A stretch of 64,000 nt of DNA from Escherichia coli (lineage in GTDB: Bacteria > Pseudomonadota > Gammaproteobacteria > Enterobacterales > Enterobacteriaceae). The DNA is taken from the NCBI RefSeq assembly GCF_003334785.1, contig NZ_QOWV01000011.1. One strand, written 5' to 3'. Positions 24,196 to 39,816 of the stretch are shown here, piece by piece. The notes beneath the pieces were generated by a model, which had not been told where the DNA came from, searched no databases, and saw only the letters and a list, made by a program, of their open reading frames with translations. Each line of letters starts with the position of its first letter. The first letter of the stretch is position 1. Both the position numbers and the translations under genes were made by a program.

Positions 24196-24516
24196 TTACT
24201 TATCAACGACCTGCCAGCCATCATCTGTTTTGACCAGCTTGACAGCCGCTGTGCGTTTTTCGTTATCGACAACAGCTGTTACATTGCATTTATAGCTTTT
24301 ATCCGATAGTTTTTCGCAGTCGTGTTTTTTGACTGATTTTAACTTCCGCAGCATGTCAGGCGTGATATCGTTTCTCGCTATGGATTTAACGATGGCATTC
24401 GTCTGCTCCACGACCTTATTCATCGCAGTGTAAATATCCTGCTCAGACGGTTCACTGGTGCAGCCGGTCAGCAAAAAAATGGACGCAATGAGTGTGGTAA
24501 ATGCATATGTTTTCAT
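24196..24516 (-). CDS. Putative lipoprotein
   Basis: Signal peptide with lipobox LLTGC. Confidence 0.55.
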   Translation of the reverse strand: MKTYAFTTLIASIFLLTGCTSEPSEQDIYTAMNKVVEQTNAIVKSIARNDITPDMLRKLKSVKKHDCEKLSDKSYKCNVTAVVDNEKRTAAVKLVKTDDGWQVVDK

Positions 24517-24542
24517 AAAATAATCCCAGACGGTAGAGTACG

Positions 24543-24941
24543 TTATTGAAAAAGGCCGGTTTTCATCTTGCTGTTGTTTTCAGAGAACGTCCACTTGCTG
24601 ACGGTTTCGCCTTTAAATTCGATTTCCAGCGTTTTGGCCTGCGTCTGTGAACCCCCGGTCAGCAGTCCAATCACGGGAATGAATGTGGTGGCATCAAACT
24701 GATTGTTGTCCATCGAATAAGTCCATTGTTCATTGCCACTATCAAGTGTAGTTTTGGTTTCGGGCTGACCGAATGCGGTAATGATTTCTGATTTCGTTGT
24801 TTTATTTTTGATGATTTTCGACTGCAGACTTTGTGATGTTTCTTTTTTTAGATGCTGGTTGCCTGATGTTGAACAGCCAGAAATAAGTAAAGAAGAAATA
24901 AAAAACACAGAAATCATGAATCTGTTCATAAGTTTTCTCAT
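24543..24941 (-). CDS. Putative lipoprotein
   Basis: Signal peptide with lipobox LISGC. Confidence 0.55.
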   Translation of the reverse strand: MRKLMNRFMISVFFISSLLISGCSTSGNQHLKKETSQSLQSKIIKNKTTKSEIITAFGQPETKTTLDSGNEQWTYSMDNNQFDATTFIPVIGLLTGGSQTQAKTLEIEFKGETVSKWTFSENNSKMKTGLFQ

Positions 24942-24978: not shown

Positions 24979-25254
24979 TCATCTTATAAAAACAACTCTG
25001 TCTGCATATTTCTTTTTAATAATGCAGATAAGAATAATGACGCTGGCAAAAAACGTAATGACTGAGGCAGGAGTGCTGCCGGTCAATGAAAACACTAACC
25101 AGGCGAGAGCTAATGCCACGAATTGAAACAGGAATGCCACACTGAGTGGACTTTCACCATAGGCCACTTTTGCATGGCAACCTTTGCAAACCCGCACACC
25201 GTGTGGGCTTTGTGTAAAGCAGAAAGGGCAGCTAATCGTTTTATTATCCATCAT
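24979..25254 (-). CDS. Small zinc-ribbon membrane protein
   Basis: CPFC...CKGC four-Cys motif followed by two hydrophobic helices. Confidence 0.45.
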   Translation of the reverse strand: MMDNKTISCPFCFTQSPHGVRVCKGCHAKVAYGESPLSVAFLFQFVALALAWLVFSLTGSTPASVITFFASVIILICIIKKKYADRVVFIR

Positions 25255-25439: not shown

Positions 25440-26669
25440 TTATGGTGCAGGATGGTTGTTGTTTTTAAATGATTGTTCTTTATTGGTATTTGTTGTCATG
25501 GGATGACAGGGTGTCAGAATATGTAGGTGGAGGATTTGGTGGAAAGGATGTGCAGTGGCATGTAACAGAGACATGCCTCTGCGCCTGAGAAGTGCCACAA
25601 TATGGACGAGCAATACAAGCCATGAATACAGACGACGCTGGCGGGGTATCTGACGAGCTGTATTGTGCAGATTGCTCCTGAGCTGGATGATACCCACTGT
25701 CTCCTGTTGTCTTTCCAGACGAATTTTTTCTTCAAGCTGATGGATTTTCTCCAGAATCGTTTCCCGGTTTGCAGCCTGCTCTTCAGACTCGCATGATGGC
25801 ACTGGCACTGGCACTGGCACTGGCACTGGCACTGGCGCGGTTGTAGGTTCTATTGGCCTCTGGGCTTCTTTCAGTAAACTCAGATGCTCAGGCGTAAAAT
25901 CAATCAGTGCTTGCAGGGAAGACCAGCCATATTTTTTACCCAACTGAGATGCTTTAAAGGCAATACCCTGGTATTGAAATGAAAATCCACTCATTTTACC
26001 CGTAGTGGCGATATTGGGTTTGCAGGTCACTCCTTCCTGTTCCAGTAAGCGAACAAAGGTTAGTAAATCGGGATGGTGTGTTAATGCATTGTCGAGCAGG
26101 GCCTGCAACAGTGACTTAGGGCAGGGAGCTGCTGTGCGTTCTGCCATCATCAGTTCATTACGGGAAGGCTTCCTTTTATCCTGGCGGCTACTGCCGGTTA
26201 CACCCGTAGTTTCGGTGAGGCCGTGTACTCTCTCCAGCTCACTGATAATCCGTGTGCCGATAAGATTTTCATTTTTCCCCAGGTACAGTTTTCCACCGAC
26301 CATGTTAATACGACTTGCAATGATATGAATATGCTGCCCATCCGGATCATCGTGCATGATATAGCAGCGAAGATGGGTGTCAGTGAAGCCCATTCGGGCC
26401 ATATAATCGTCAGCGAATGCTGCCCACTGTCTGTTTGACAGTTTCTCACCCTTTGGCAGGCGAAGTGAATTATGCCAGACAGGTTTGGCGACATCGGGAC
26501 GCAGCAGTCGGGTGCCTTCAAATTCACTTATAAGCTCAGCAGCAGTGCTACCCGTCATGTTGCCACCGATGACATAAGGCGTGATTTTGTGGTGAGAACC
26601 TGACTTCAGGCTATAAATAACCACACCTGTGAATTGTTTACCCCTTTTTATTTTCTGCATGCCTTTCAT
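25440..26669 (-). CDS. Mobilisation relaxase (MobA/MbeA-like)
   Basis: 409 aa; histidine-triad-like relaxase motif HDDPDGQHIHIIASR; ATGA start/stop overlap with upstream mobC-like gene. Confidence 0.7.
   Translation of the reverse strand: MKGMQKIKRGKQFTGVVIYSLKSGSHHKITPYVIGGNMTGSTAAELISEFEGTRLLRPDVAKPVWHNSLRLPKGEKLSNRQWAAFADDYMARMGFTDTHLRCYIMHDDPDGQHIHIIASRINMVGGKLYLGKNENLIGTRIISELERVHGLTETTGVTGSSRQDKRKPSRNELMMAERTAAPCPKSLLQALLDNALTHHPDLLTFVRLLEQEGVTCKPNIATTGKMSGFSFQYQGIAFKASQLGKKYGWSSLQALIDFTPEHLSLLKEAQRPIEPTTAPVPVPVPVPVPVPSCESEEQAANRETILEKIHQLEEKIRLERQQETVGIIQLRSNLHNTARQIPRQRRLYSWLVLLVHIVALLRRRGMSLLHATAHPFHQILHLHILTPCHPMTTNTNKEQSFKNNNHPAP
25798..25836. repeat. Hexanucleotide tandem repeat (ggcact) x6.5 inside relaxase gene
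   Basis: Direct read; encodes (Pro-Val)n linker PVPVPVPVPVPVP on minus strand. Confidence 0.9.
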
Positions 26670-27073
26670 GGGTCTGACTCCAGAAATGTTGAGGGAATAA
26701 GGTGATCCCTGAGAGTTTTGATTTGTCTGCGCAGGGCGAAGAGTTCTGTACGGGTCAGTTCGCTGTCAGGGCTTTTGCTGTCGAGATGACTCAACAGGTA
26801 GTTTAAATCCTGTGAAAGGCTGCCAAGTTTTATCCATGCTTCACGATTGATTTCTGGCAGAACCGGCGGGAGTTTATTCAGGGAAGCCATCCTGAGCCAT
26901 TCTCCTTTTTTATACTGACCTCTTTTACTGTCGAGAATAATTAATTCTTCTTCATTTAATCTGACACTGATGCAGTGATGTCGTATTTCATTCTCAGGAA
27001 ATTTGTCAGTATGGAATTTACCGCGTTTTGATACTCTGGTTATATCATCATCATTACTCATGTCACTGTTCAT
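26666..27073 (-). CDS. MobC/MbeC-like relaxosome accessory protein
   Basis: 135 aa; position immediately upstream of and overlapping relaxase; family assignment from composition and context, weaker than relaxase call. Confidence 0.55.
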   Translation of the reverse strand: MNSDMSNDDDITRVSKRGKFHTDKFPENEIRHHCISVRLNEEELIILDSKRGQYKKGEWLRMASLNKLPPVLPEINREAWIKLGSLSQDLNYLLSHLDSKSPDSELTRTELFALRRQIKTLRDHLIPSTFLESDP

Positions 27074-27274
27074 AGTTATCCTTTTATTTCATGTTTATTA
27101 CTACAGATAACCGATGAAATGAATAAGTCAAGTTGTTACGGGATAAATAATTTAATTATCTGGATTAAAAAAGGTATACCATTTGACAAATAGTATACCC
27201 ACGAGGACATATCAGATTAATGGTCATTAAATGAATCCTTGCAGACTAAGAAAAGGGTTGTTTACTCCAGAGTT

Positions 27275-28228
27275 TTAGAGTCTTTTTCGTACAGATGAAC
27301 GGGGGATCTCTGGCTTCATTTCTTTTAACAGGTCTTTTTTCTCTCTTGCTGCGATATAAGAAAAAATCTTATCGGAGTCAGAACGCTGTCTGAGTATATC
27401 GTCGTCCATTCGGATACCATTTCGAATGAACCATTTCACACTTTCTATGCCGGTGTAGATACCAATATGTTTATCATGATAACAATTATAAAACTGAACA
27501 TGACTGATATCGGTATATTTTTTCAGTGAGGTAAAGAAGTACTTCATGTTTTTGACATATAATGCGAAGGAACAGTGTTCAGCGATAAGGATATTACGCC
27601 CTTTTTCATGAAGCAAAGCAATTAGAGGCAAAGCCTCAGTTGAAACATGTTTAAATAATACTGGCGTGCTGTCTATTCTATCAACATGGCGTTTGAGGGC
27701 ATTAATACTGAAATCATATATCCACCACTCGTTGTCAGTCGGAAGATCCAGCACCGCTTTGCCACCATAATCTCTGTGGTTTATGTCACACCCTTTATTT
27801 ACCCAGTAATCAAAGACATCATGATCGAGGAGGTCATAAAGAAGCGTTTGTCCTTCGTTATCTGTGCTGTGGATATCAATGCCCGCGTTTATGAGGAGTT
27901 CCGCACAATCTATGGCGTAGCGCTGCCAGTGAAGACAGGACTGGCCTTTATTATTTTTGTGGTGAACGTTAATACCTGACTTTATCAATAGCCTCACTGC
28001 ACGTGGGCTTTTTCTGCTAAACAGGGCATTATTACCATAACAATCTGTATGGTTCAGCGCTATGCCTGCTTCAATCATGGCTTTTAAAGCCCCGATACTG
28101 TCGCAACCGAAAAGGGCGTTTTCACCGTGTTCATTAAGTGTGTTAATGTCAATGCCTGCAGCAATGCAATTCTGGACGTCTTTTTTAGTTTTGCTGTCAA
28201 ATAAATTATCTTCTGTATAGTTACTCAT
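27275..28228 (-). CDS. Ankyrin-repeat protein
   Basis: 317 aa; several approx 33-aa ankyrin-like repeats (..G.NALF...LI.SGI.VNH.D..G.T.L..). Confidence 0.65.
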   Translation of the reverse strand: MSNYTEDNLFDSKTKKDVQNCIAAGIDINTLNEHGENALFGCDSIGALKAMIEAGIALNHTDCYGNNALFSRKSPRAVRLLIKSGINVHHKNNKGQSCLHWQRYAIDCAELLINAGIDIHSTDNEGQTLLYDLLDHDVFDYWVNKGCDINHRDYGGKAVLDLPTDNEWWIYDFSINALKRHVDRIDSTPVLFKHVSTEALPLIALLHEKGRNILIAEHCSFALYVKNMKYFFTSLKKYTDISHVQFYNCYHDKHIGIYTGIESVKWFIRNGIRMDDDILRQRSDSDKIFSYIAAREKKDLLKEMKPEIPRSSVRKRL

Positions 28229-28242
28229 GGGCGTTCTCCTTT

Positions 28243-28683
28243 TTAAGCGGTCGTTTTGTGCCAGGTATTATTGTTGTATTCATATTCTTTTATCTTAATG
28301 ATCTCGTCATAGATCCGTGAAAAAGAAAACCATGAGATCTCTTTCACTTCGCCTTTTTTGTTTGTGTAAATGATATTGCAGCCACGAAAAGAAAATGACT
28401 GATAGAAAGTATCGTGATTCTCCTCTTTAAGAAAACGGGTAAAAGCTTTTATGGTGTCTTTTTTTTCCATGCTATAAGAGAAAAAGGTATGGATAGCAAA
28501 TATGGTCAGAATATTTCTTTCCGTCACCATATGTCTGGAAAAATAATTAAGATAAAAAACATGATCTTCAATGCTATTTTTACAGAATATTGAAAAGTGA
28601 GGGTTATACAGACGGTAGAGATCTGTATTCTTTTTTGTTTTAGATAGGTAACTTGTCAGGGTTGAATAGTTTTGTTTTTTCAT
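28243..28683 (-). CDS. Hypothetical protein (operon with ankyrin gene)
   Basis: 146 aa ORF 15 nt downstream of ankyrin gene. Confidence 0.45.
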   Translation of the reverse strand: MKKQNYSTLTSYLSKTKKNTDLYRLYNPHFSIFCKNSIEDHVFYLNYFSRHMVTERNILTIFAIHTFFSYSMEKKDTIKAFTRFLKEENHDTFYQSFSFRGCNIIYTNKKGEVKEISWFSFSRIYDEIIKIKEYEYNNNTWHKTTA

Positions 28684-28685
28684 TT

Positions 28686-29042
28686 TTATTCTCCTTTATT
28701 ATTTTGATGAAATGAATGTATATTATCAAATAAATAAAAATCAAATTTATTTTTAATAATAAAAAATAAGCAAGCGTTTTCTTTTGAATAAACTAATTTA
28801 ATGTGATGTTTTATATAAATAAATTCATAGTTTGCAAAAAGTGCTATTTTTATTTCATGGTTGATTGATGGGCGTTTTTCCCCATTGCTTAGGGGGAAAT
28901 ATATCCCATTAATATTAAATGTTTGAAGTGAATCGTATTTTAGCAGGGGAATATTATATCTTTTACTTCTGTTTTGATTTTCAACTTTGTGTGTGAGACA
29001 CAATATGTGATAGTGTTGTGATAATCGTAAGTATCCTGCCAA
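28686..29042 (-). CDS. Hypothetical protein (operon with ankyrin gene)
   Basis: 118 aa ORF 3 nt downstream of previous. Confidence 0.4.
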   Translation of the reverse strand: MAGYLRLSQHYHILCLTHKVENQNRSKRYNIPLLKYDSLQTFNINGIYFPLSNGEKRPSINHEIKIALFANYEFIYIKHHIKLVYSKENACLFFIIKNKFDFYLFDNIHSFHQNNKGE

Positions 29043-29264
29043 AACGAATCATTCACTTTAAACCTTTACTGACATATTGGTTATATATTCTGAGAAATTT
29101 ATAGTGCAAAAGGCTCGGTGTGCAGACTTACGCCAGCCCAATCAAGCCGTAGTGCTTTAGTTTTGGGGCTTAGGTATGGTGGAAAAAAGCGACTCGTTAA
29201 GCTTACTGAGCTCTATGTATTTCAGGAGTCGGTCAGTAAGTTAACGATCCAAGAGGCTCATCAA

Positions 29265-29537
29265 TCATAAGAGATGTATCAATCTTGCGAGACTCTCACG
29301 GATTTTATCGCCGTCATAAATAGCAATCTCTTCAATATTGTTACCAATGAAAGTTTCAGCTGCCTGGATGGCTATCAGTTCAGACATACCAACGTTATCA
29401 GCCAGCTGGCGTGCTGCAATGACCTTGCTTTCAAGAGTTAGGATGACCGGCCTGTAGCCTGCGCGTTTGATTTTGATACAGTGTGAAATCAATTTCTCCA
29501 TAGGTGCGGTGGTCACTTGGAATGCAGTCGTACCCAC
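29265..29537 (-). CDS. Hypothetical protein, possibly gene remnant
   Basis: 90 aa ORF; flanking 29540-29770 has coding-like composition without intact frame. Confidence 0.3.
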   Translation of the reverse strand: MGTTAFQVTTAPMEKLISHCIKIKRAGYRPVILTLESKVIAARQLADNVGMSELIAIQAAETFIGNNIEEIAIYDGDKIRESLARLIHLL

Positions 29538-30376
29538 CTGAAAGGCCCCTTCACGGTCAATGTGTGGATCATTAGCATTGGCCCTGCGACTACTGATTTT
29601 AACATCTAGGGAAACGTAGCTGATGTTTGGCTTCGATAAGATTCTGTAGCACCGCCTCAGTGGGGTTGTCAGAACATTCCGCTGCCGCCTTAAGAATATC
29701 GCTTACTAGAGATGAAACTGGTTGATTGTAATCCCGGTCGACCGTTACTCTATGTTTATCCGGATAATTTTGGCGTACACATTAAGTGAAGAAAACTTCA
29801 AAGTGATTTGAAACAGATGTTGTATTCACTGGCTCATTTACATTAACTTGAGTGTTGTTCAGCACATGTTGAAACGCAGCTGTAAGGAAGATGATACAGC
29901 CAAGATGTATCCTTCATTATGGGGATTGGCGCGATGACCACCACGGCTTAGCCCGATTGATTATTTGGAAATTGATTAGAATGCATAATCTGGGCTGAGC
30001 TCACTTAAAGTCTCTAATGTTTGACTTGGAGATTTGGGGGGCAGTGGCTTTCAGTTTTGTTAACTCTAACATCTGGTTTACGTTCCTTTTGGAACAAGAA
30101 GCAGAGGTCTGCTAAGTAATGGTTGTACTGCTTGTGATAGGTATGACTGCATGTTCAGCGAGCAAGAATGGCTTAAAAGTTCTGTTACTGAGCACCCCAT
30201 GAAGTTAGAACGATGTCATAACGTGCACGTAACCGTTGAACTGTTCTCTTACAGATAATCTCTACATAGCTATTATTGCTTAGGCGGTAGCTATGTAGAT
30301 GGTTTTTGTAATATTATATTAAAAGTTCATACAGCGACTATAGCATCATTGCGAAAAATATCAGGAGGTGAGTTTA

Positions 30377-32482
30377 ATGTTACGAAAAAGCAAACTTACA
30401 GAGATATATAAAAGGTTTGGTTTTACTGAAGAAAATACAGGTAACGAAAGTATTGCTGTATATTCTATTAAAACAGGGCACTACCATAACGCGGACATAC
30501 TTCCACTAAATAATGAGGTTAATGTAAATCAAACCTTTGAAGAATATAGGCAGTTAGGTTATGCATGTCAAATTAAAAAATATCAGTCTTATGAAGAAGC
30601 ACATAAGGAATTATTTAATGGCTTCTTTAGCGTCGATTCAACTAAAGAAAGGTTGATTAAAGATTATAATACTTTCACAGATTCAATTGTAAAAATTCAC
30701 TCACCTACTGCAACTTATTCCTACATAAATTCAAAATATTACTTAAATGGTGTTATTGGCGAAGCTAATGTTGTTACGGAAATATTAGAGAGAATACAAC
30801 ATAGGCGTCCAATTCTGTTTTTGATTGAGGCTGCAGCCGGTTTTGGAAAGACTTGCACGGCGTATGAATTATTGAGGGAGATTATAGTTAACAATATAGG
30901 GAAAATACCATTATTTTCAGAACTATCAAGGAATAGGCAAGCAAAAATATTCAGGTATGTACTATTAGATGAAATTGATAGAAGTTTTCCTTTGTTAAGC
31001 TCAGCCTTAGTAAGGAATGAAATAAGAGCAGGAAATGTACCAGTTATACTTGACGGGTTTGATGAACTATTGCATGAAAGTACAAACGGAATTGAAAATA
31101 ATTATGAAAAAACAGAGCCAATGCTGGAAACAATAAGTGAGCTTCTAACTGATAGTGCAAAAGTGGTTTTGACAACTCGAAGAACAGCTATATTTGACGG
31201 AGATGAATTCCATCAGTGGATAGCATCACATCAAGAAGATTTTGATGTGATAAGAATAAGAATTCATGAACCACAAATTGAAGACTGGCTTCCAGGTCAA
31301 CGTTTAGATGAAATTTCATCGACAGGATTTCCTCTTAACAAATTATCAAACCCTGTACTGCTATCATTTCTAAGATGCATCGACGACACCGACTTTAATA
31401 AAGTTATAAGCGACCCAACAACTATAGTGAGGAAGTATTTTGATTCAATGCTTGAGCGAGAAAGAAAAAGACAAGATTTATTAATGTCTATTGAAGATCA
31501 ATATACTATACTAAAAATAATAGCTGACGACATGGTCGAGGGTAACTACACATCTGAGTCTAGAGAGTATATATCGTTAGTCATAACTGAAAAGAATCAA
31601 CAACTCTTGGAGGCTACAAGAAAGCTTTATACTGTAGATGAAAGACCAACTACTGACGAATTAGTTAATAAATTAGCATCGCATGCTCTATTAGATCGGT
31701 CAGGCTCAGAAAACCAAGGTATTGGATTTGTTAATGAATTTGTTCTTGGTAATTTTGTTTCTGAAAATATTATTAATGATAAGTCAAATGAATGGATTGG
31801 TGATAAACGTTTTATAGAACCAGCAGTGCAATCTTATATGCCGAGGATCGATGATGAAAAAGAATTACTTTGGCATAGCTTAGAGTTTGCTTTATATTTT
31901 ATGTCAGGTAATGATAAAATCCTTTATAGTCATTTGCTTATAGGAAAAGTTCCATTAGATTTAAAAAATGATAGTGTTGAGCAATTGTCTATATCAAAAC
32001 TTTCTTTAGGCGATATAAATATAATACATGATACTATCTTTGTTGATTGTTCGTTTTTTAGCAGCATATTTACCTGTGGTAATTATAAAAACGTTACATT
32101 CGTGAACTGTTCTTTTATAGATTGTAGTTTTAACGAATTAAGTGGTAGGGAAGATATTTATTTTTTGGGATGTGAATGTGACAATGATGCTATTAATAAA
32201 AAATCTGTCGAGATAAACAGTGAAAATGATCACGATATTACAGATTGTGATATTTACATCTTAGAGAAGTTCTGTCCCAGAGGGAGTGTTAGCTATCATA
32301 AGCATCGGCCTATAAAAGGCTTATGTTCTAACAACAATCAATTTCAGTTAAGTGAAATACTCCATTCTTTAGATAAATTGAGGAAAGACGGTCTTTTACT
32401 TACGCCAGACAAGCGTTCGTTCCTTGAACTTAACATGGCAAGAATATCAGAGATTAAAGCAATTCTTGGGAGGAATTTCTGA
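30377..32482 (+). CDS. NACHT/STAND-type P-loop NTPase with C-terminal pentapeptide repeats
   Basis: Start at ATG 30377 with aggagg RBS; Walker A AAAGFGKT; NACHT-style Walker B VILDGFDEL; C-terminal run FVDCSF-FSSIF-TCGNY-KNVTF-VNCSF-IDCSF. Confidence 0.7.
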   Translation: MLRKSKLTEIYKRFGFTEENTGNESIAVYSIKTGHYHNADILPLNNEVNVNQTFEEYRQLGYACQIKKYQSYEEAHKELFNGFFSVDSTKERLIKDYNTFTDSIVKIHSPTATYSYINSKYYLNGVIGEANVVTEILERIQHRRPILFLIEAAAGFGKTCTAYELLREIIVNNIGKIPLFSELSRNRQAKIFRYVLLDEIDRSFPLLSSALVRNEIRAGNVPVILDGFDELLHESTNGIENNYEKTEPMLETISELLTDSAKVVLTTRRTAIFDGDEFHQWIASHQEDFDVIRIRIHEPQIEDWLPGQRLDEISSTGFPLNKLSNPVLLSFLRCIDDTDFNKVISDPTTIVRKYFDSMLERERKRQDLLMSIEDQYTILKIIADDMVEGNYTSESREYISLVITEKNQQLLEATRKLYTVDERPTTDELVNKLASHALLDRSGSENQGIGFVNEFVLGNFVSENIINDKSNEWIGDKRFIEPAVQSYMPRIDDEKELLWHSLEFALYFMSGNDKILYSHLLIGKVPLDLKNDSVEQLSISKLSLGDINIIHDTIFVDCSFFSSIFTCGNYKNVTFVNCSFIDCSFNELSGREDIYFLGCECDNDAINKKSVEINSENDHDITDCDIYILEKFCPRGSVSYHKHRPIKGLCSNNNQFQLSEILHSLDKLRKDGLLLTPDKRSFLELNMARISEIKAILGRNF

Positions 32483-33387
32483 TGTATAACGGGAATGAAT
32501 TGCGAATTATTCAAAGTTTGCAAAAAGATATAGAAGATGAACTTAATCGTATTGGATTACTTTATCGTTTTTTTTCGAGGACAAAATCAGAAAGCTCAAT
32601 AATTAAGAAATATGAAAAAGAGCCTAATAAATACTCAGAGGATGGTAAAAAAATTCAAGACTTATTTGGGGTTAGGATAATATTATATTTTCCTGATGAT
32701 TTATTTATTGCTCAAAAAACACTGGAGAAATTATTCGAAATTGAATCTAAAACCGTAGACGAAACCACGGCTAATCTCTTTGCGGCAACTCGATGCAATT
32801 ACGTCTTTAAGTTACCAGAAGTATTATCAAATGATAGTGTCTTATTAAAGAAATATTCTTATATTGATACTACTTTTGAAGTCCAATTTAGAACTATTTT
32901 ATCTGAAGGATGGCATGAAGTTGAGCATGATCTACGCTATAAGTGCAAAGAGGATTGGGTTGAGCATAATGACCTTAGTCGCGCGCTGAATGGAATTTAC
33001 GCCTCTTTGGAAACATCTGATTGGGGAATAATGAAGTTATTTGAGGATTTAGCATATAGAAATTATAAGTCAAGCGCATGGTCCGCTATGCTAAGAAATA
33101 AATTAAGATTGAGAATGGACGATAAGCTTGATGAAAAGATAATTTCAATAATTAATGAGAAAGAGCTTGGTAAAAAGTTTTATAGAATTGACAGAGATCG
33201 TTTGTTATCGTTAATGTTAGATTATAATATTGATATACCAATTAATCTTAATAATATAATTTACCTTTGTAATTATTTTTTCATAAAATCTACGGAGCTT
33301 CAGGATATAGCCCCTGCTTTAATAATGAAAAAGCTTACAGATGCTGATGAAAAATTCAATAAAAATACTATTTTAGCATCTAAATAA
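32482..33387 (+). CDS. RelA/SpoT-domain nucleotidyltransferase (alarmone-synthetase / toxSAS-like)
   Basis: Start overlaps upstream stop (TGATG); motifs FSRTKSESSIIKKYEK, DLFGVRIILYFPDD and EVQFRTILSEGWHEVEHD correspond to the RelA/SpoT synthetase fold (G/RxKS..S, D..G.RII, ExQIRT). Confidence 0.65.
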   Translation: MYNGNELRIIQSLQKDIEDELNRIGLLYRFFSRTKSESSIIKKYEKEPNKYSEDGKKIQDLFGVRIILYFPDDLFIAQKTLEKLFEIESKTVDETTANLFAATRCNYVFKLPEVLSNDSVLLKKYSYIDTTFEVQFRTILSEGWHEVEHDLRYKCKEDWVEHNDLSRALNGIYASLETSDWGIMKLFEDLAYRNYKSSAWSAMLRNKLRLRMDDKLDEKIISIINEKELGKKFYRIDRDRLLSLMLDYNIDIPINLNNIIYLCNYFFIKSTELQDIAPALIMKKLTDADEKFNKNTILASK

Positions 33388-34439: not shown

Positions 34440-35336
34440 CTATGACTGGCTGTTTTCAGTAAGAGTCTTATCATCCAAAGAATTTATTCTAGAAATTCTT
34501 TTTAACTCATTAAGATAATCAACCTCGTTTTCTAAGAACCAATGAAGAACTTTAGAGTTGCCAAGTAATTTATTAATATATGACTGGATTATAACGAATT
34601 TCAACATATCTGAACCATACTCGGTTTGAAGTTTTTTCGTTTCTTCCGAAGTTGTTGCCATTTCTTGTTCCAGACGAAGTATGGTTTTTTTTATGTCCTT
34701 TTTATAGGGAGTGTTTTTCCCTTTATTTACTATCATCGATGACGGTGTTGCATCCAAGATGCTCATTGCAAATTTTTTACTATAATTATCAAAATTAATC
34801 ATTGTACCGACTGCTTCAATTTGACGAATTGGCTTCATTTTCCTCAAAACGTCAAATGTAGCCTTAGGTATAGGTTTATCAGAAAGTTTCGCAATTACAC
34901 TTGGATCTATGCCGTTCATCACATTAGCTTTATCTTTTATGGCATCAACAGATATGCCCAAAGCAGCACTAAGTTTTTCAATTGATACTTTTGCCAGAGA
35001 CTTAATTATCATTCTATGTTCTTCAACTACATTTATATGATTCACTTGTTTGTTAGGAGTGAAAGCATCATCTATGCTCGAAAGTATACATGGAGCTTTT
35101 TCTATATCTAAGTCTTTTAAAGCCTCAACCCTTAAATGGCCATCAAGTATCTTAGTGACATCTTTATCTTTGTCATAGAATACTATTATTGGTTCAATAA
35201 TACCCAAGCTTTCGATAGAGGTAACTATTTGATGATATTTATGGCTTCGCTTTACGTTTTCTAATAATTCCTTAGATGGAATTAACTTATTAGTTTCCAG
35301 GTAAATAAAATTTTTGCCAAAACGTATCTGAATCAT
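34440..35336 (-). CDS. ParB/Srx-fold (ParB-like nuclease domain) protein
   Basis: 298 aa; N-terminal ParB-like pattern ...IEPIIVFYDKDKDVTKILDGHLRVEALKDLDIEKAPCIL. Confidence 0.55.
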   Translation of the reverse strand: MIQIRFGKNFIYLETNKLIPSKELLENVKRSHKYHQIVTSIESLGIIEPIIVFYDKDKDVTKILDGHLRVEALKDLDIEKAPCILSSIDDAFTPNKQVNHINVVEEHRMIIKSLAKVSIEKLSAALGISVDAIKDKANVMNGIDPSVIAKLSDKPIPKATFDVLRKMKPIRQIEAVGTMINFDNYSKKFAMSILDATPSSMIVNKGKNTPYKKDIKKTILRLEQEMATTSEETKKLQTEYGSDMLKFVIIQSYINKLLGNSKVLHWFLENEVDYLNELKRISRINSLDDKTLTENSQS

Positions 35337-36229
35337 TTTGATACCTCTTTGTTTACTGGGTTTAATATCTGAGATGGTAGTTCTGAAAGATTCTCTTGTT
35401 CAAGTATATTTTGAAAGCTTTTATTCATCATTATGATGTTAAAAATCTCATTTATTATTAGTAGATTGGTTTTTATAAATTTCGAGTTGTTATAAACAGA
35501 TTTATGTTCAGCGATACTATTTTCATAAAGCTCAATCAACTCCTCTGCAGTCATCCTTTTTGATGGTTTGTGATAATAAAATCCGGCTGCTTTTGCACCT
35601 TTATTCCCAACTGTTCTTTGATTTAGAATGTATTTTATCTTTATAATGTCCCGACTTTTTATTAATTTTTTATCATATGCTTCGGTAAGAATATCTTGTG
35701 CTTCCTCAGTTTCACATCTTGCAAATTGCACTGCGAGATACAGAGGCAAATTACCCCGTTCGACTGCTGAGAGAAGTTTATGCTCTCCCTTATCAAGAAG
35801 CATATTAATACTGCTCACCCAGTTCGATGAATATCCAGTAATCTCACTTATTTCGGAGTCTGAAAGTCCTCTGATTTTCATGTCTTTAATCACCTGTAAT
35901 AACTCATTAGAACGTGGTCTTCTCCTTGCAATGTTTTCAACTAAACTCATAACGTAAGCATCTTCTTCTGATACATCTCTTATAATTGCTGGAATAATAG
36001 TTTCACCTAATGCAACAAGAGCCTCTATTCTCCCTTGACCACAAATTAAAGCATATTTGAAATCGTCTTCATCAATAGCTCTTACGCTTATAGGCTTGCT
36101 TAATCCTCTTTTTTTTATGCTTTCCTTTATTTCTTCATGCACTACCTTATTTCTTGTTCGTGGGTTAAGAAATTTTATTTTTGCAATCTCAATTTGAATT
36201 ATTGGGAATTCATTTTTTTCAGGCAGCAT
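35333..36229 (-). CDS. ParB/Srx-fold (ParB-like) protein
   Basis: 298 aa; ...KPISVRAIDEDDFKYALICGQGRIEALVALGETIIPAIIRDVSEEDAYVMSLVENIARR resembles ParB N-terminal domain; 4-nt overlap with downstream gene. Confidence 0.6.
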   Translation of the reverse strand: MLPEKNEFPIIQIEIAKIKFLNPRTRNKVVHEEIKESIKKRGLSKPISVRAIDEDDFKYALICGQGRIEALVALGETIIPAIIRDVSEEDAYVMSLVENIARRRPRSNELLQVIKDMKIRGLSDSEISEITGYSSNWVSSINMLLDKGEHKLLSAVERGNLPLYLAVQFARCETEEAQDILTEAYDKKLIKSRDIIKIKYILNQRTVGNKGAKAAGFYYHKPSKRMTAEELIELYENSIAEHKSVYNNSKFIKTNLLIINEIFNIIMMNKSFQNILEQENLSELPSQILNPVNKEVSK

Positions 36230-37775
36230 ATAGTTCCCTCACTTTCATGCGAGTAATAATTTGTAGAAATTTATCAAGATTATCAAATCTATAGAGATCT
36301 AACCGAATGTTGTTTGTTTCCATCATACACATTTTACTATATTCGTTTTCAATCTTTGGTATGATATAAAAATCAAGAGGTGAAATATTTTGTGAATTCA
36401 TTCGTATAACAATTGTTATGTCTGCTTTCTGTGAGTTATCAAACCGGACTTTCCATCTAAGTTTACCTGATTTCATATGTATGCATTTAGTAACAAGGAC
36501 GGAAATTAAAAACTCATCATTGATGTAAAGCATTGGGTAATATTTATACTCGTCTATATGACAGTTACTTTTTAATATTTCGCCCTTAAAATCCTCAATT
36601 ATCTCTGAGTAAAATGATCTTAGTGCTTCATTTATTTGGAGATAGCTGTAATCATGTTCTGGCTTATAACCAATCAAAGTATATGCTCTTAAAAGACCAC
36701 CAAATCGGGTTCTATAAACAGAAGATGAAGGGCCTGTATCATCTTCATCAATGATAAAGCCTGATAGTTTTCCATTAGATTCTAATTTTTCTTTTAGCTT
36801 TTCTAATAGATCTTCATTAGTCAAATGAATGGATCGGAGCTGAATTATTTCTTGAGCTTTATTATATTTTTTCTTTGAAATAATTGGTTTATATGCCTTG
36901 TCACATCTAATCCATTCATGTTTGGGGTTTTTTACAAGCTTACTTTTTAGTTTAGATGAGGTTTTGTTATATATGTTGTTTCCAATATATTTTTCATTTG
37001 TCAAAATTTGATGTATTTTTGCACGAGTCCATGATGTTCCATTTTCTGCAGGTATGCTCTGTTCATTTAATCTCTCAGCAATAATGAATTCTGGGACGTT
37101 ACTATCTATAAAGAGATCATAGATTCTATTTACAATTTTTATTTCATTTTTTGGTCCCGGAATTAATATTACCCTATCTGTTTGAATACTCTTTCTTTTG
37201 CGGAAATTCAATATTTCTTTAGCTATGCCATTTTCGTCTACTAAAAGACGTCTCAGCCCATAACCAGCCATACCGCCTTGATGATAACCAAGCTTTATTA
37301 AATTTACTTGCCCTATAAATACCTTTTCAGATAGATTCCTGCTGTGATATGCAGCACTTGATCTTTTTATATTCAGTATAACAGAGGACTCTAAAGGGAA
37401 ATCTTTAGTGGGTATAGGTTCGGAACAATATATAAGATCTACACCATTTCTTTCAAATAGAAAGGAATAATATGCAGCTTCATCACTATTTTGAAAACGA
37501 CCAAAACGGCTCACATCATAAAATAATACAGCCTGTATATCTATTTTCTTTTGTTCTACATCGCTAAGTAACTGCTGCAAAGAATGCCTGCCTACGATAC
37601 TGACTCCGCTCTTACCTGCATCATCGTAGGTATAAGCGATTTCCATATTGTTCTTTTCAGCATAATCTTTGATATATTCAGACTGATTATGTAAAGAATA
37701 TTGCTGATGGTCGGTAGACATCCTCAAGTACTGTGCGACCCTAACTCTATGATTTTTTTCATTTCCGCTAGCCAT
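36219..37775 (-). CDS. Large serine recombinase (resolvase + recombinase domains)
   Basis: N-terminal resolvase motif YLRMSTDHQQYSLHNQ with catalytic-Ser context and DVSRFGRF; downstream recombinase-domain pattern (SWTRAKIHQILTNEKYIGN); start at ATG 37775. Confidence 0.7.
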   Translation of the reverse strand: MASGNEKNHRVRVAQYLRMSTDHQQYSLHNQSEYIKDYAEKNNMEIAYTYDDAGKSGVSIVGRHSLQQLLSDVEQKKIDIQAVLFYDVSRFGRFQNSDEAAYYSFLFERNGVDLIYCSEPIPTKDFPLESSVILNIKRSSAAYHSRNLSEKVFIGQVNLIKLGYHQGGMAGYGLRRLLVDENGIAKEILNFRKRKSIQTDRVILIPGPKNEIKIVNRIYDLFIDSNVPEFIIAERLNEQSIPAENGTSWTRAKIHQILTNEKYIGNNIYNKTSSKLKSKLVKNPKHEWIRCDKAYKPIISKKKYNKAQEIIQLRSIHLTNEDLLEKLKEKLESNGKLSGFIIDEDDTGPSSSVYRTRFGGLLRAYTLIGYKPEHDYSYLQINEALRSFYSEIIEDFKGEILKSNCHIDEYKYYPMLYINDEFLISVLVTKCIHMKSGKLRWKVRFDNSQKADITIVIRMNSQNISPLDFYIIPKIENEYSKMCMMETNNIRLDLYRFDNLDKFLQIITRMKVRELYAA

Positions 37776-38057
37776 GCACAAAACCTCATGGATGATTCAA
37801 TACAATGTAGAGGATAAAATTGATCAAATTTTAACCGAATTCAACTGTTTTATCATTGATTAGAGCGAATTTGGTAGTTCTTCGAGGTGTATGATAATCG
37901 AGAAGAGATGTGAATTATTTAGCTGATATGACCGACAGCTTTCGTTATGTGGCCTCAAGGTACCCATTTGTAAATGGCTATGCTTAGTCCACATAGGTTA
38001 ATGGTGTGATCATTAATTCTTCAAATAAATCAAGATAGTTAACCCATCATGGAAGAG

Positions 38058-39287
38058 TTATGCGGCAATAACTTTGTATTTTTGAGACGAAACATAGTCA
38101 CTCCACCATTGCATGAGAACCACACGTTCTGTGAGATACTCTGCACGATTGTAGGCTGCAATTATTTCATCTTTTTTCGAGTGGGCAAGGGCGGCTTCTA
38201 AGACATCAGTTCTAAACTTGCCACACTCCTCAGCCGCCGTTCTAGCGATTGATCGCATACCATGAGCTACAAGCTCACCTCCGAAGCCCATACGGATTAT
38301 AGCCGCATTAGCTGTTTGTTCATGCATGTGATTGAGTGGAGCTTTGATACTGGGAAAAACCCACTCTCTATGCCCGCTGATGGCTTTCATTGAATCCAAG
38401 ACTCGCAAAGATTCTTTGCTCAGTGGAACTTTGTGAGGCTTCTTCATTTTCATAAACTCCGCCGGGATGTTCCACATGCTGGTTTCTATATCAATATCTG
38501 ACCATCTTGTGCGAACAGCTTCACCAGGGCGAACCCATGTGAGAAGTTGCCACTCAATCAGTAGCCTTGTTTCTAAACGGATAGAAGCATTGTTTAGAGC
38601 AACCAGGAAGCGGGGGAGTTCGGAAGGGGGTAATGCTGGCATATTCTGTTTTTTTGGCTTGCTGAACCGTTGCCCCAGGTTGTCAGCCGGATTGAATTCT
38701 ATGAGTTCTTCTGTTGCTGCATAGCGGAAAATTTCATTCAGGCGGGATATGACGCGGCGAAGTGTTTCAAGGACACCTCGTTTTTCTATGGGGTCTAAAT
38801 GCTGTTTAAGCATTTTAGGGCGAATCTCCTTAATGGGGGTATCACCCAACGTTGGAAAGATATTTCTCTCTAGGCTTCGCCAGATGTCGTTAGCATGATC
38901 CTGGGAGATGCCTGACGTTTTGACTTTCTCATCAAGCCACTTCTTGGCTACTGCTTGAAATGTATGTTCCGTTGCATCCTTAAGGGCATTGGCTTTGTGG
39001 GTGTTATGAACTTGTGGGTCTATACCATTTGCAAGCAACGACAAGTACTCATCACGTAAAGCTCGTGCCTTCGCAAGTGTAAGGTGAGGATAGGTTCCTA
39101 AGCTCACCTTAGTTCGCTTTTTGGTCACAGGCACTGCATATCTGAAATACCAATTTTTCTTTCCTCCCTTCGCTAAGGGGGCGATTCGCAGGAGCAAACC
39201 ATCGCCGTCAAAAAGGTTAACCTCTTTCTCGGCAGGTTTGGTGCTTTTGATTTCAGTGTCAGTGAGCTTCTTAGCGATTTTTGCCAT
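38058..39287 (-). CDS. P4-type tyrosine integrase (IntA-like) next to ssrA
   Basis: Start at MAKIAKKLTDTEIKS (ATG 39287) in ORF 38058-39431; C-terminal catalytic region with HGMRSIARTAA and terminal tyrosine context; directly 5' of tmRNA 3' end. Confidence 0.85.
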   Translation of the reverse strand: MAKIAKKLTDTEIKSTKPAEKEVNLFDGDGLLLRIAPLAKGGKKNWYFRYAVPVTKKRTKVSLGTYPHLTLAKARALRDEYLSLLANGIDPQVHNTHKANALKDATEHTFQAVAKKWLDEKVKTSGISQDHANDIWRSLERNIFPTLGDTPIKEIRPKMLKQHLDPIEKRGVLETLRRVISRLNEIFRYAATEELIEFNPADNLGQRFSKPKKQNMPALPPSELPRFLVALNNASIRLETRLLIEWQLLTWVRPGEAVRTRWSDIDIETSMWNIPAEFMKMKKPHKVPLSKESLRVLDSMKAISGHREWVFPSIKAPLNHMHEQTANAAIIRMGFGGELVAHGMRSIARTAAEECGKFRTDVLEAALAHSKKDEIIAAYNRAEYLTERVVLMQWWSDYVSSQKYKVIAA

Positions 39288-39453
39288 GTTTGGGACCCTC
39301 ATGTTTTGGACCCTTTGTGTTGGGTCCCAAAAAGGGTGCCATAACGAGTAGATTCTAGCAATTCTCGGTAGACTACTATAGACGTAAAAAAGCCCGCAAG
39401 GCTGGTTCCATGCGGGCTTGATAGACTTCACTGAACTTCAATATATCAAAAAT

Positions 39454-39816
39454 TGGTGGAGCTGGCGGGAGTTGAACCCGCGTCCGAAATTCCTACATCC
39501 TCGGTACTACATGCTTAGTCAGTCTTTACATTCGCTTGCCAGCTGCGGACGGACACGCCACTAACAAACTAGCCTGATTAAGTTTTAACGCTTCAACCCC
39601 AGGCAGGGCTTCCACGCGATCTCTTTTGGGTTTGACCTCTCTTGATCCCCGTCCTAAGAGCGGAGGCTAGGGAGAGAGGGCTCTAAGCAGGTTATTAAGC
39701 TGCTAAAGCGTAGTTTTCGTCGTTTGCGACTATTTTTTGCGGCTTTTTACGAGGCCAACCGCCCCTCGGCATGCACCTTGGGTTTCGCAAATCCCGTCGA
39801 ATCCAGAATCAGCCCC
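39454..39816 (-). ncRNA. ssrA: tmRNA (SsrA)
   Basis: 363 nt; minus-strand sense begins ggggctgattctggattcgacggg and ends ...gggttcaactcccgccagctccacca; tag-encoding region present. Confidence 0.95.

Follow-up and report, generated by a model that had tools for sequence, protein, structure and literature searches.

A divergent allelic cassette encoding an ankyrin-repeat protein and an orphan partner in the backbone of a mobilizable island of Escherichia coli

The ankyrin gene and its upstream reading frames

We analysed a 64,000-nucleotide stretch of an Escherichia coli contig (NZ_QOWV01000011.1; the window, whose positions are used throughout), in which the original prediction had placed a three-gene operon consisting of an ankyrin-repeat gene followed by genes for two small proteins. 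Open reading frames (ORFs) of 317, 146 and 118 aa were present as predicted, and the following features were delineated:

27275..28228, minus strand: Ank gene (317 aa), second gene of the cassette; annotated by PGAP as 'ankyrin repeat domain-containing protein' (WP_000074023.1)
27734..28171, minus strand: ankyrin-repeat array of Ank (aa ~20–165), ~5 repeats of 30–31 aa each
27353..27733, minus strand: small C-terminal β/α-repeat domain of Ank (aa 166–292), without a Pfam match
27278..27352, minus strand: basic C-terminal tail of Ank (…REKKDLLKEMKPEIPRSSVRKRL), net charge +5 in the last 25 aa, ending …VRKRL
28243..28683, minus strand: 146-aa orphan gene, first gene of the cassette; product basic (pI 9.3)
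28684..28855, minus strand: conserved upstream regulatory region of the 146-aa gene, with promoter-like AT-rich blocks and a Shine-Dalgarno site; end of the backbone
28686..29042, minus strand: ORF118 (118 aa), an open frame spanning the backbone/cargo junction; probably no gene

All three ORFs are encoded by the minus strand and are thus read in the order ORF118, 146-aa gene, Ank gene, the reverse of that first proposed, with Ank last. The spacers, previously given as 15 and 3 nt, measured 14 nt (146-aa stop to the Ank gene) and 2 nt (ORF118 to the 146-aa gene). The reported AT-richness was borne out, with a GC content of 35.2% across the three-ORF region (Ank, 40%; 146-aa gene, 32%; ORF118, 25.5%) versus 50% in the flanking core DNA. 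Both the 146-aa gene and the Ank gene possess an ATG start and a strong AAAGGAG Shine-Dalgarno site. ORF118 has a TTG start, lacks a Shine-Dalgarno site and contains no internal Met.

Several lines of evidence bore on the status of ORF118. It was not annotated by RefSeq/PGAP in the records inspected, two of which were identical across the query, and a search of 5.8 billion proteins retrieved only 99–100% identical copies and shorter ORFs of 66–74 aa. In relatives the frame is interrupted, leaving 53, 28 or 0 codons. Backbone homology to every relative ends in the middle of the ORF at ~28850 (between 28789 and 28858); the DNA encoding its N-terminal half is lineage-specific, and the C-terminal half shares its DNA with the conserved promoter/ribosome-binding region that precedes the 146-aa gene. 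A six-way alignment of 28684–28855 revealed the conserved blocks AATAGCACTTTTTG, GAAAACGCTTGC, TAAAAATAAATTTGATTT…TAATATATATTC and AAAGGAG, block conservation of the kind seen in regulatory DNA, and indels whose lengths were not multiples of three. Promoter-like matches were also found upstream of the 146-aa gene, and an Rfam scan of 26500–30400 gave zero matches. The lack of conservation, the broken frames, the end of homology and the non-triplet indels spoke against ORF118 as a third gene. On this comparative evidence it is probably no gene and most likely represents non-coding upstream DNA, reducing the proposed operon to a two-gene unit. Its length is unusual for its composition (at least 118 codons in 7/2000 shuffles), and given this it may encode a lineage-specific peptide.

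The assignment of the 317-aa product (Ank) as an ankyrin-repeat protein was upheld by a Pfam Ank_2 match (aa 73–153, E = 5e-6; matches to Ank, Ank_4 and Ank_5 were weaker) and by the motif G-x-x-A-L-F, which recurs with a period of ~30 residues at aa 35, 65, 95, (125) and 155. Membership of the ankyrin families is defined by tandem helix-turn-helix-hairpin repeats of ~33 residues that the family HMMs recognise. The family alignment displayed the same periodicity (G-x-N-A-L-F … G-I-(N/D)-I-N-H), and precomputed Pfam annotation assigns Ank families to nearly all relatives. Full-length family members were found down to 27–37% identity, and all named members belong to the Enterobacteriaceae. No catalytic or enzyme fold was detected in profile and fold searches and a signal peptide was absent. 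An ankyrin scaffold without a catalytic domain implies that Ank acts by binding another protein. Matches to curated ankyrin families were confined to the repeats. This included NCBIfam NF043029 (AnkY/LegA9) and NF043023 (AnkH/LegA3), with 25.5 and 22.4 bits against a curated cut-off of 600, and PADLOC PDC-M72A, with 31 bits over aa 13–99 only (profile positions 274–366 of 392). The other PDC-M72 components were absent, and neither the 146-aa protein nor ORF118 had a PADLOC match. A division of Ank into a variable ankyrin surface and a constant C-domain was rejected for the close group, in which divergence was fairly even and aa 256–292 were more conserved.

The 146-aa protein belongs to a conserved orphan family with 24 matches in 1.84 billion representatives. 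Its description as a small partner free of motifs held, with no match in Pfam, NCBIfam, PADLOC, PHROGs, PDB sequence or fold searches and none of the HTH, RHH or winged-helix matches significant. For both proteins, there were no matches to TA families, no recognisable effector domains (nuclease, TIR, SIR2, pore-forming) and no match to known anti-restriction, anti-CRISPR or SOS-inhibitor proteins (Pfam, NCBIfam, PHROGs, PDB sequence, fold search). A tblastn search of 50,697 phage records also returned zero matches. Homology to phage or plasmid structural genes with known roles, which had been raised as grounds for abandoning the prediction, was likewise not found, and no mention of the RefSeq accessions of the two proteins was found in the papers searched. 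Both families were restricted to mobile elements of Enterobacteriaceae, namely this island family and pBSSB1-type linear plasmids. Thus, Ank and the 146-aa protein are real and conserved, neither has known function, defence-system or phage homology, and both look like non-enzymatic conflict/establishment factors of mobile DNA.

Island context and allelic divergence

The tmRNA gene ssrA is located at 39454–39816, adjacent to an integrase gene (38058–39431), and no T4SS genes were annotated across the whole island. With its integrase, its relaxase and accessory genes and no T4SS, the element carrying the pair has the gene content of an integrative mobilizable element at ssrA. Since a relaxase is present and its own T4SS is absent, the island must use a helper machine. 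The surrounding features were as follows:

23629..24054, plus strand: 141-aa orphan backbone protein (tail …YEKKRIARSLAYTPPGSVVRKRL), conserved in all island relatives
25440..26669, minus strand: 409-aa relaxase (MobA/VirD2 superfamily, MOBP-like; NCBIfam matches)
26666..27073, minus strand: 135-aa relaxosome accessory protein (MobC/NikA-like), its stop overlapping the relaxase start
27172..27200, minus strand: 13-bp inverted repeat (GGTATACTATTTG/CAAATGGTATACC) followed by a T-run, between the Ank and MobC-like genes
27451..28650, minus strand: divergent allelic cassette, comprising the 146-aa CDS and Ank codons 1 to ~259

The relaxase matched two NCBIfam models at scores far below cut-off, TraI_MobP_relax (E = 3.6e-14) and Bacteroid_MobB (E = 1.2e-15); its closest typed plasmid relative is the MOBP relaxase of pWES-1. 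The 135-aa protein had a weak NikA-like Pfam match (E = 0.14); its gene occupies the position of mobC in plasmids with 43%-identical relaxases and is preceded by a conserved TTGACT promoter. In all islands, the cassette is directly upstream of the MobC-like and relaxase genes and on the same strand. The backbone order 146-aa gene, Ank, 135-aa gene, relaxase, 90-aa gene, lipoprotein, lipoprotein, 141-aa gene (opposite strand), HTH, AlpA and DUF6387 recurs in E. coli, Salmonella and K. michiganensis, and the ssrA-integrated island family was found in E. coli, Salmonella and Klebsiella. Cargo varies among these relatives (PTS sugar genes, IS elements, NACHT) and the Ank/146 pair stays. By this comparison of gene order the pair is a component of the island backbone, not a free-standing operon, a point absent from the original prediction. 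One island (A42) retains the 146-aa gene and the mob genes and has no Ank, so Ank is dispensable for the backbone.

Between near-identical islands, replacement was confined to the 146-aa gene and Ank up to about codon 259, where nucleotide identity was 55–71% compared to about 93% elsewhere. In sliding-window comparisons with the F247 and K. michiganensis islands, nucleotide identity fell from 0.9–0.95 to 0.55–0.74 exactly across 27451..28650, with sharp borders and recovery on both sides. The cassette proteins shared 67–69% and 63–65% identity, compared to 84–98% for most other backbone genes. The last ~58 Ank codons, including the tail, were constant with the backbone and not with the cassette; this sharp boundary within Ank exists at the nucleotide level only, between near-identical islands. 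These identity profiles show that the 146-aa gene and the putative target-binding part of Ank are swapped jointly as one exchangeable allelic cassette.

Two sequences were considered as transfer origins. F247 and K. michiganensis carry the inverted repeat at 27172–27200 with hardly any change; in Salmonella and A42, other inverted repeats occupy the same place. The repeat at 27172–27200 contains no conserved nic-like sequence and may be the cassette terminator, an oriT repeat or both. A MOBP nic-like sequence, TATCCTGCC, is located at 29032–29040 within a long imperfect hairpin; this ATCCTG-type candidate upstream of the 146-aa gene was rejected as oriT, being lineage-specific and absent from all relatives. 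No nic motif was common to the island and the sequences preceding mobC in pWES-1 or in a Pseudomonas plasmid. An oriT at 27172–27200 would make the pair leading ORFs 1–2, whereas one at TATCCTGCC would make it lagging. The pair has the same orientation as the mobC-like and relaxase genes, which fits a T-strand-template layout only if oriT lies between them.

A basic C-terminal tail common to unrelated proteins

The motif [KR][KR][KR][LIMV]-COOH terminated 17/25 Ank family members, including ones at ~30% identity, and was missing from the plasmid-type Ank variants. The 141-aa backbone protein carries the same tail module (net charge +6), which was present in every orthologue examined. Homology between this protein and the Ank C-domain was rejected: the hhalign alignment covered just the 27-residue tail, and so only the tail is common to the two proteins. 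The motif was also enriched at C-termini on linear plasmids (P = 4e-5 to 5e-13 per plasmid), where the tagged proteins comprised about 10 mutually unrelated families (at least nine orphan); a functional look-up returned orphans throughout. Both the Ank and the 141-aa tails have the net positive charge over the last ~25 residues that is used as a criterion for T4SS substrates. This reading of the tail is weakened by the fact that linear plasmids are not known to conjugate. The 146-aa protein, too, is basic, making simple direct binding between it and the tail less plausible.

On linear plasmids, one of which (L006) has a perfect terminal inverted repeat of 469 bp, the 146-aa homologue heads operons ending in two orphan N6 methylases. 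In some it adjoins an ankyrin gene, and the vicinity also includes TA genes and an ArdC-like zincin. Linear plasmids carrying the Ank and 146-aa families include ones without a recognised relaxase, and these genes are not discussed in the linear-plasmid paper. Across islands and linear plasmids alike the 146-aa gene is the first gene of its operon. A few families distinguish linear plasmids rich in the tail from those poor in it, and of these only the 146-aa family is also present on the island; this association is confounded by phylogeny, and one tail-tagged protein was found in the absence of the 146-aa family.

Candidate roles of the cassette

Of the contexts suggested in the original prediction, secreted effector and immunity or anti-defence roles all remain conceivable, and the genomic context favours an anti-defence or establishment reading. 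We tentatively propose, with rather less than even confidence, that the 146-aa gene and Ank (in that order) constitute a two-gene accessory cassette on a mobilizable island that acts as a conflict/establishment module. Ank would act stoichiometrically, binding a variable protein of the host (recipient), for example a defence or stress factor, which would thereby be neutralised or re-targeted. The 146-aa protein would be its co-evolving partner, serving either as an adaptor or to regulate the cassette promoter. The constant tail, [KR][KR]R[LIM]-COOH, would represent a recognition tag on Ank, the 141-aa protein and at least nine unrelated linear-plasmid families. Its most likely role would be a positively charged C-terminal translocation signal, through which the type IV coupling protein of a helper plasmid would export these proteins with the DNA; alternatively, it might be a ClpX-type degron confining them to a short period. 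If oriT is in the gap between Ank and the MobC-like gene, the cassette would be the first gene pair on the leading side, oriented for early expression.

Leading regions of conjugative and mobilizable elements, taken as the ~30 ORFs nearest to a mapped oriT on its leading side, are enriched in T-strand-encoded anti-defence functions and orphan methylases (PMC11541004). Compared to such genes (ArdA/KlcA/ArdC, PsiB, SSB, orphan methylases; Samuel et al. 2024, PMC11541004), the pair is likewise small, non-essential and specific to mobile elements, close to a relaxase module and putative transfer origin, co-oriented with the relaxase genes, and highly diverse and exchangeable, and its plasmid relatives adjoin orphan N6 methylases and an ArdC-like zincin. 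However, it resembles no known anti-defence protein in sequence or fold, the linear plasmids of its relatives are not known to conjugate, and the leading side here is only a candidate.

The tail can be set against proteins co-transferred through T4SS (VirB/D4 substrates; the F 'conjutome', PMC11288057). Transfer of proteins by F-like conjugation machines is generally supported by a positively charged C-terminus, and IncN and IncP systems also carry many of the full-length substrates (PMC11288057). The present tail is likewise strictly C-terminal, with a charge of +5 to +6 over the last 25 residues, and is borne by proteins of one element that are otherwise unrelated. In contrast to the loosely defined charge signals in the literature, [KR][KR]R[LIM]-COOH is much tighter, and it is commonest on linear plasmids, where the sole known transfer-related protein is DotA/TraY-like. 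A bolder reading is that the tail is a dedicated cargo tag and the 146-aa protein its cognate adaptor or chaperone, by which elements lacking a machine would load establishment proteins, including allele-variable ankyrin binders, onto a helper type IV system or another export route. We regard this as a long shot. ClpX C-motif-2 degrons are MuA-type basic C-termini (…RRKKAI). The Ank tail is similarly short and basic with an aliphatic last residue, a likeness in composition only.

Bacterial ankyrin proteins also include inhibitors and immunity proteins, such as Bdellovibrio Bd3460 and the immunity proteins of polymorphic toxins. Like these and the Ank effectors of Legionella and Coxiella, the protein described here is a non-catalytic ankyrin scaffold. 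Unlike them, it has no adjacent toxin partner and no signal peptide, possesses an additional β/α-repeat domain and a basic tail, and scores far below the AnkY and AnkH cut-offs.

Other roles were weighed against the same evidence. The pair could be an anti-phage/anti-plasmid defence or exclusion system on an island serving as a defence hotspot, with Ank sensing the invader and the 146-aa protein as effector or partner. Neighbours of defence type (a NACHT and RelA/SpoT pair, a decayed type II REase and, in a sister strain, a dCTP deaminase), the weak 31-bit match to the candidate PDC-M72A and the sharp allelic replacement, also typical of defence loci, are in keeping with this. We nevertheless consider it unlikely, given that the pair is located in the conserved backbone and not in variable cargo, the PADLOC match is confined to ankyrin repeats with the remaining components missing, and neither protein has a recognisable effector domain. 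Moreover, the orphan methylases and ArdC-like protein beside the plasmid relatives are counter-defence neighbours. A regulatory specificity module resembling a phage immunity region, in which the 146-aa protein binds its own upstream boxes and Ank is an anti-repressor or sensor coupling a signal from host or helper to excision and mobilisation, would account for allele swapping because regulator/operator specificity diversifies. It draws on the first position of the 146-aa gene in every operon, the basic pI of its product, the strongly conserved upstream boxes and cassette borders as sharp as those of immunity regions. Yet these boxes are constant across alleles of 60–70% identity, the opposite of allele-specific operators, significant HTH, RHH or winged-helix matches were absent and AlpA, HTH_36 and a further HTH regulator are already present on the island, making this role doubtful.

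Proximity to the mob genes raised the question of a relaxosome or coupling accessory, for example with the constant C-terminus of Ank bridging the relaxase–DNA complex to the helper coupling protein. In all islands the cassette lies immediately upstream of the mobC-like and relaxase genes and points the same way, and the constant last 58 aa of Ank follow the backbone, not the cassette, in their variation. Against this, A42 keeps its mob and 146-aa genes with Ank absent, small mobilizable plasmids with related MobC/relaxase pairs have no cassette-like gene annotated around their mob genes, the families also occur on linear plasmids lacking a recognised relaxase, and a hairpin, a T-run and a separate promoter part the cassette from the mob genes; we therefore judge a mobilisation role quite improbable. 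Delivery of Ank into eukaryotic host cells as an effector would be consistent with ankyrin repeats being typical of T4SS effectors, with the weak best NCBIfam matches (Legionella AnkY and AnkH) and with the basic RKRL tail, which we take to resemble a monopartite NLS. Here the scores of 22–25 bits against cut-offs of 600, the ordinary commensal, livestock and environmental Enterobacteriaceae that carry the gene, the lack of a secretion apparatus encoded on the island and the many tiny orphan plasmid proteins bearing the same tail leave this role with hardly any credibility.

Should the conflict/establishment reading fail, the pair would be an ordinary hypothetical backbone gene pair on a known kind of island. 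If it holds, two uncharacterised families and a compact C-terminal tag would join the establishment repertoire of mobilizable islands and enterobacterial linear plasmids, and the cargo-tag reading, if true, would add a previously unrecognised protein-delivery layer to mobilisation. The allelic-cassette structure offers a natural set of variants in which to seek the host target of the ankyrin scaffold. The accessory genes of pBSSB1-type linear plasmids are almost all unannotated, and such work would also inform the biology of these plasmids.

Gene layout of the ankyrin locus

The three ORFs of the original prediction (317, 146 and 118 aa) were found exactly where it had placed them, and the AT-richness it described was borne out, with 35% GC across the stretch compared to 50% in flanking core genes.

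27275-28228, minus strand: Ank gene, ORF of 317 aa (ankyrin-repeat protein)
28243-28683, minus strand: 146-aa gene, ORF of 146 aa
28686-29042, minus strand: ORF118, ORF of 118 aa

All three lie on the minus strand, so transcription runs from ORF118 (29042→28686) through the 146-aa gene (28683→28243) to Ank (28228→27275), the reverse of the predicted order of Ank followed by two small proteins. The intergenic gaps are 2 nt (ORF118/146-aa gene) and 14 nt (146-aa gene/Ank), rather than 3 and 15 nt. Both the 146-aa gene and Ank have an ATG start and, ahead of it, a strong AAAGGAG ribosome-binding site. ORF118 has a TTG start, lacks a ribosome-binding site and an internal Met, and was unannotated by RefSeq in the genome records inspected, two of them identical over the query. 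Only its length for its composition speaks for it as a gene (at 25% GC, 118 or more codons occurred in only 7/2000 shuffles); all comparative evidence is against. Its matches in 5.8 billion proteins were confined to 99–100% identical copies and 66–74-aa ORFs with its C-terminus. The corresponding frame in related islands runs for 53 (another frame), 28 or 0 codons, and nucleotide homology with every one of them ends between 28789 and 28858, within ORF118, which marks its N-terminal half as lineage-specific DNA. The conserved half comprises perfectly conserved blocks with 1–2-nt indels between them and finishes with the 146-aa gene's Shine-Dalgarno site; we read 28684-28855 as the putative promoter and leader of that gene. 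From the predicted three-gene operon, the 146-aa gene and Ank stand as a two-gene unit and ORF118, comparatively unsupported, drops out. The observation behind the prediction is partly confirmed, and its interpretation is supported in part.

Relative to shuffled sequence, the AT-rich DNA at 28684-29264 folds far more stably in either strand (z about −4.4). Arms of roughly 40 nt (about 28920-28960 and 29025-29068) form an imperfect inverted repeat there, in which a perfect MOBP nic-like TATCCTGCC occurs at 29032-29040; this site is not in related islands.

The two proteins and the elements that carry them

Ank is a genuine ankyrin-repeat protein, as predicted (Pfam Ank_2 at aa 73-153, E=5e-6). 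Its family alignment (n=25) displays about five repeats of 30–31 residues (aa 20-165) and a conserved C-terminal half; in the AlphaFold model, aa 165-317 (pLDDT 87, confident) form a short β-α-β-α-β-α array and then a long helix, and the C-terminus reads …REKKDLLKEMKPEIPRSSVRKRL. The 146-aa protein is basic (pI 9.3) and, in keeping with the predicted lack of a recognisable motif, had no match in Pfam, NCBIfam, PADLOC or PHROG. Its family is tight (mean column identity 60%) and small: 1.84 billion clusters yielded no more than 24 representatives. Neither protein had phage homologues, and both are scaffold-only proteins.

The pair belongs to a genomic island that has integrated at the ssrA 3' end.

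23629-24054, plus strand: 141-aa backbone protein, C-terminus …YEKKRIARSLAYTPPGSVVRKRL
24979-25254, minus strand: 91-aa zinc-ribbon and transmembrane protein of the island backbone; relatives 32–35% identical on linear plasmids L008 and L010
38058-39431: integrase of the island
39454-39816: tmRNA (ssrA)

Downstream of Ank on the same strand, past a 200-bp gap, follow genes for a 135-aa protein (weak NikA-like match, in the position of mobC in related plasmids) and a 409-aa relaxase, the closest typed relative of which is MOBP. Gene order is the same in E. coli, Salmonella and Klebsiella michiganensis: 146-aa gene, Ank, 135-aa gene, relaxase, 90-aa gene, two lipoproteins, 141-aa gene (opposite strand), HTH, AlpA and DUF6387. 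Past the promoter of the 146-aa gene, the DNA varies by island (PTS sugar genes, IS elements or a NACHT/RelA-SpoT pair). No T4SS genes are annotated in the island, which is an integrative mobilizable element; the pair belongs to its backbone and stands where this meets the cargo. Among 5,426 complete E. coli genomes, 61–66 have this allele and 159 have the 146-aa family.

Several neighbouring features were also recorded. At 30368-33387 (plus strand), a 704-aa protein combining NA-iREase2, NACHT and pentapeptide-like regions has a stop/start overlap with a 301-aa RelA_SpoT-domain protein (Pfam); this looks like a two-gene STAND and alarmone-synthetase-like defence pair, and had no PADLOC system match. 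The RelA_SpoT gene is truncated in strain 300709, and IS3 replaces the pair in strain 98-3133. At 29265-29561 (minus strand), where the cargo region begins, a decayed R-M system is represented by the C-terminal portion of a type II restriction endonuclease with DUF4928 (PADLOC REase_II, E=7.5e-42, profile positions 214-301); no methylase lies close to it. Downstream of the relaxase, two small lipoproteins are encoded (24196-24941, minus strand), one of which has a weak Cor-like superinfection-exclusion PHROG match; where near-identical islands are compared, the 106-aa lipoprotein forms another divergent patch and so may be an entry-exclusion determinant. At the island's ssrA end, a pair of successive genes of the ParB/RepB/Spo0J family, together with a serine recombinase (34440-37781, minus strand), adjoins the tyrosine integrase. 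The tRNA at 13229-13304 (plus strand) is tRNA-Met (CAT) by ARAGORN and tRNA-Ile (lysidine-modified ileY type) in RefSeq.

Compared with two related islands, the 146-aa protein is 67–69% and Ank 63–65% identical; other backbone proteins are mostly 84–98% identical, the 106-aa lipoprotein being lower (78–79%). Nucleotide identity falls from ~0.93 to 0.55–0.74 exactly across 27451-28650 and recovers on both sides. The replaced block comprises the 146-aa coding sequence and Ank codons 1 to ~259, while the last ~58 Ank codons, including the tail, and the promoter region of the 146-aa gene stay with the backbone. This joint replacement indicates that both genes pass on together as a single functional unit, of which several old alleles exist; conflict or specificity genes typically show this pattern. 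Island A42 has the 146-aa gene and lacks Ank. E. coli C carries a decayed module next to ssrA (NZ_CP020543.1, 1146599-1151258), where three ankyrin genes, one of them interrupted by ISSen4, flank a 146-aa homologue; in the vicinity are a SIR2 gene and a solitary type I R subunit.

The only other carriers are 15–45-kb plasmids of Salmonella, Klebsiella, Enterobacter, Citrobacter and E. coli, which are pBSSB1-type linear plasmids (PMC9453081); one has a perfect terminal inverted repeat of 469 bp. The cassette is two-gene, co-inherited and restricted to mobile elements. The plasmid 146-aa homologue (155–162 aa as annotated, about 45% identical) is first in an operon ending in two orphan N6 methylases, and on some plasmids adjoins an ankyrin gene; an ArdC-like zincin, NadS/RelE and further orphans are found close by. 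Island and plasmids have only three families in common: Ank, the 146-aa protein and the 91-aa zinc-ribbon membrane protein.

A conserved C-terminal tag

In profile comparison, Ank and the 141-aa protein align only over a 27-residue C-terminal module. The motif [KR][KR][KR][LIMV] forms the extreme C-terminus of 17/25 Ank proteins, some as little as 30% identical, and of all the 141-aa orthologues examined. Linear plasmids with a 146-aa homologue (L006, L007, L009 and L011) each encode 3–7 ORFs ending in this motif against 0.06–0.07 expected (P from 4e-5 to 5e-13). The tag is conserved and statistically real. These plasmid proteins belong to about ten mutually unrelated families, all orphans, and on L006 and L011 their genes lie near the plasmid ends. 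Two linear plasmids without the homologue had 0 and 1 such ORFs, a contrast that is suggestive and phylogenetically confounded.

Possible roles of the pair

Our tentative preference is for a module serving establishment or acting against the host, with proteins possibly delivered by a helper's T4SS, on the basis of context, plasmid neighbours and literature on C-termini. A relaxase-adjacent, co-oriented pair with plasmid relatives among orphan methylases matches the leading-region establishment and anti-defence genes described previously (PMC11541004), although the likeness is in context only; Ank has no homology to known anti-defence proteins. Positively charged C-termini carry proteins through F-like conjugation machines, and IncN and IncP systems also pass many full-length substrates (PMC11288057). 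Ank would act by binding another protein, its variable part and the 146-aa partner tracking a variable target and its constant tail joining it to something constant. Since both are basic, the 146-aa protein is unlikely to bind the tail directly; the tail might instead be a ClpX-type degron. The establishment and delivery reading is weakened by A42 lacking Ank, by linear plasmids not being known to conjugate and by the oriT, which was searched for on the island and not located; the hairpin that follows Ank could be no more than a terminator.

A defence or exclusion system fits the neighbourhood and the cassette behaviour, but is unlikely given the backbone position, the absence of any effector domain and plasmid neighbours of counter-defence type. 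Similarly doubtful is a regulatory specificity module: the 146-aa gene comes first, its product is basic and the upstream boxes are conserved, yet these boxes are constant across alleles and no DNA-binding fold was detected. Less probable still is a relaxosome accessory, and a eukaryote-directed effector is highly improbable. Ank belongs neither to the Legionella Ank effector families nor to PADLOC PDC-M72. We class the pair as putative accessory conflict genes of mobile elements, whose cassette structure and shared C-terminal tag are the main points of note and are both directly testable.
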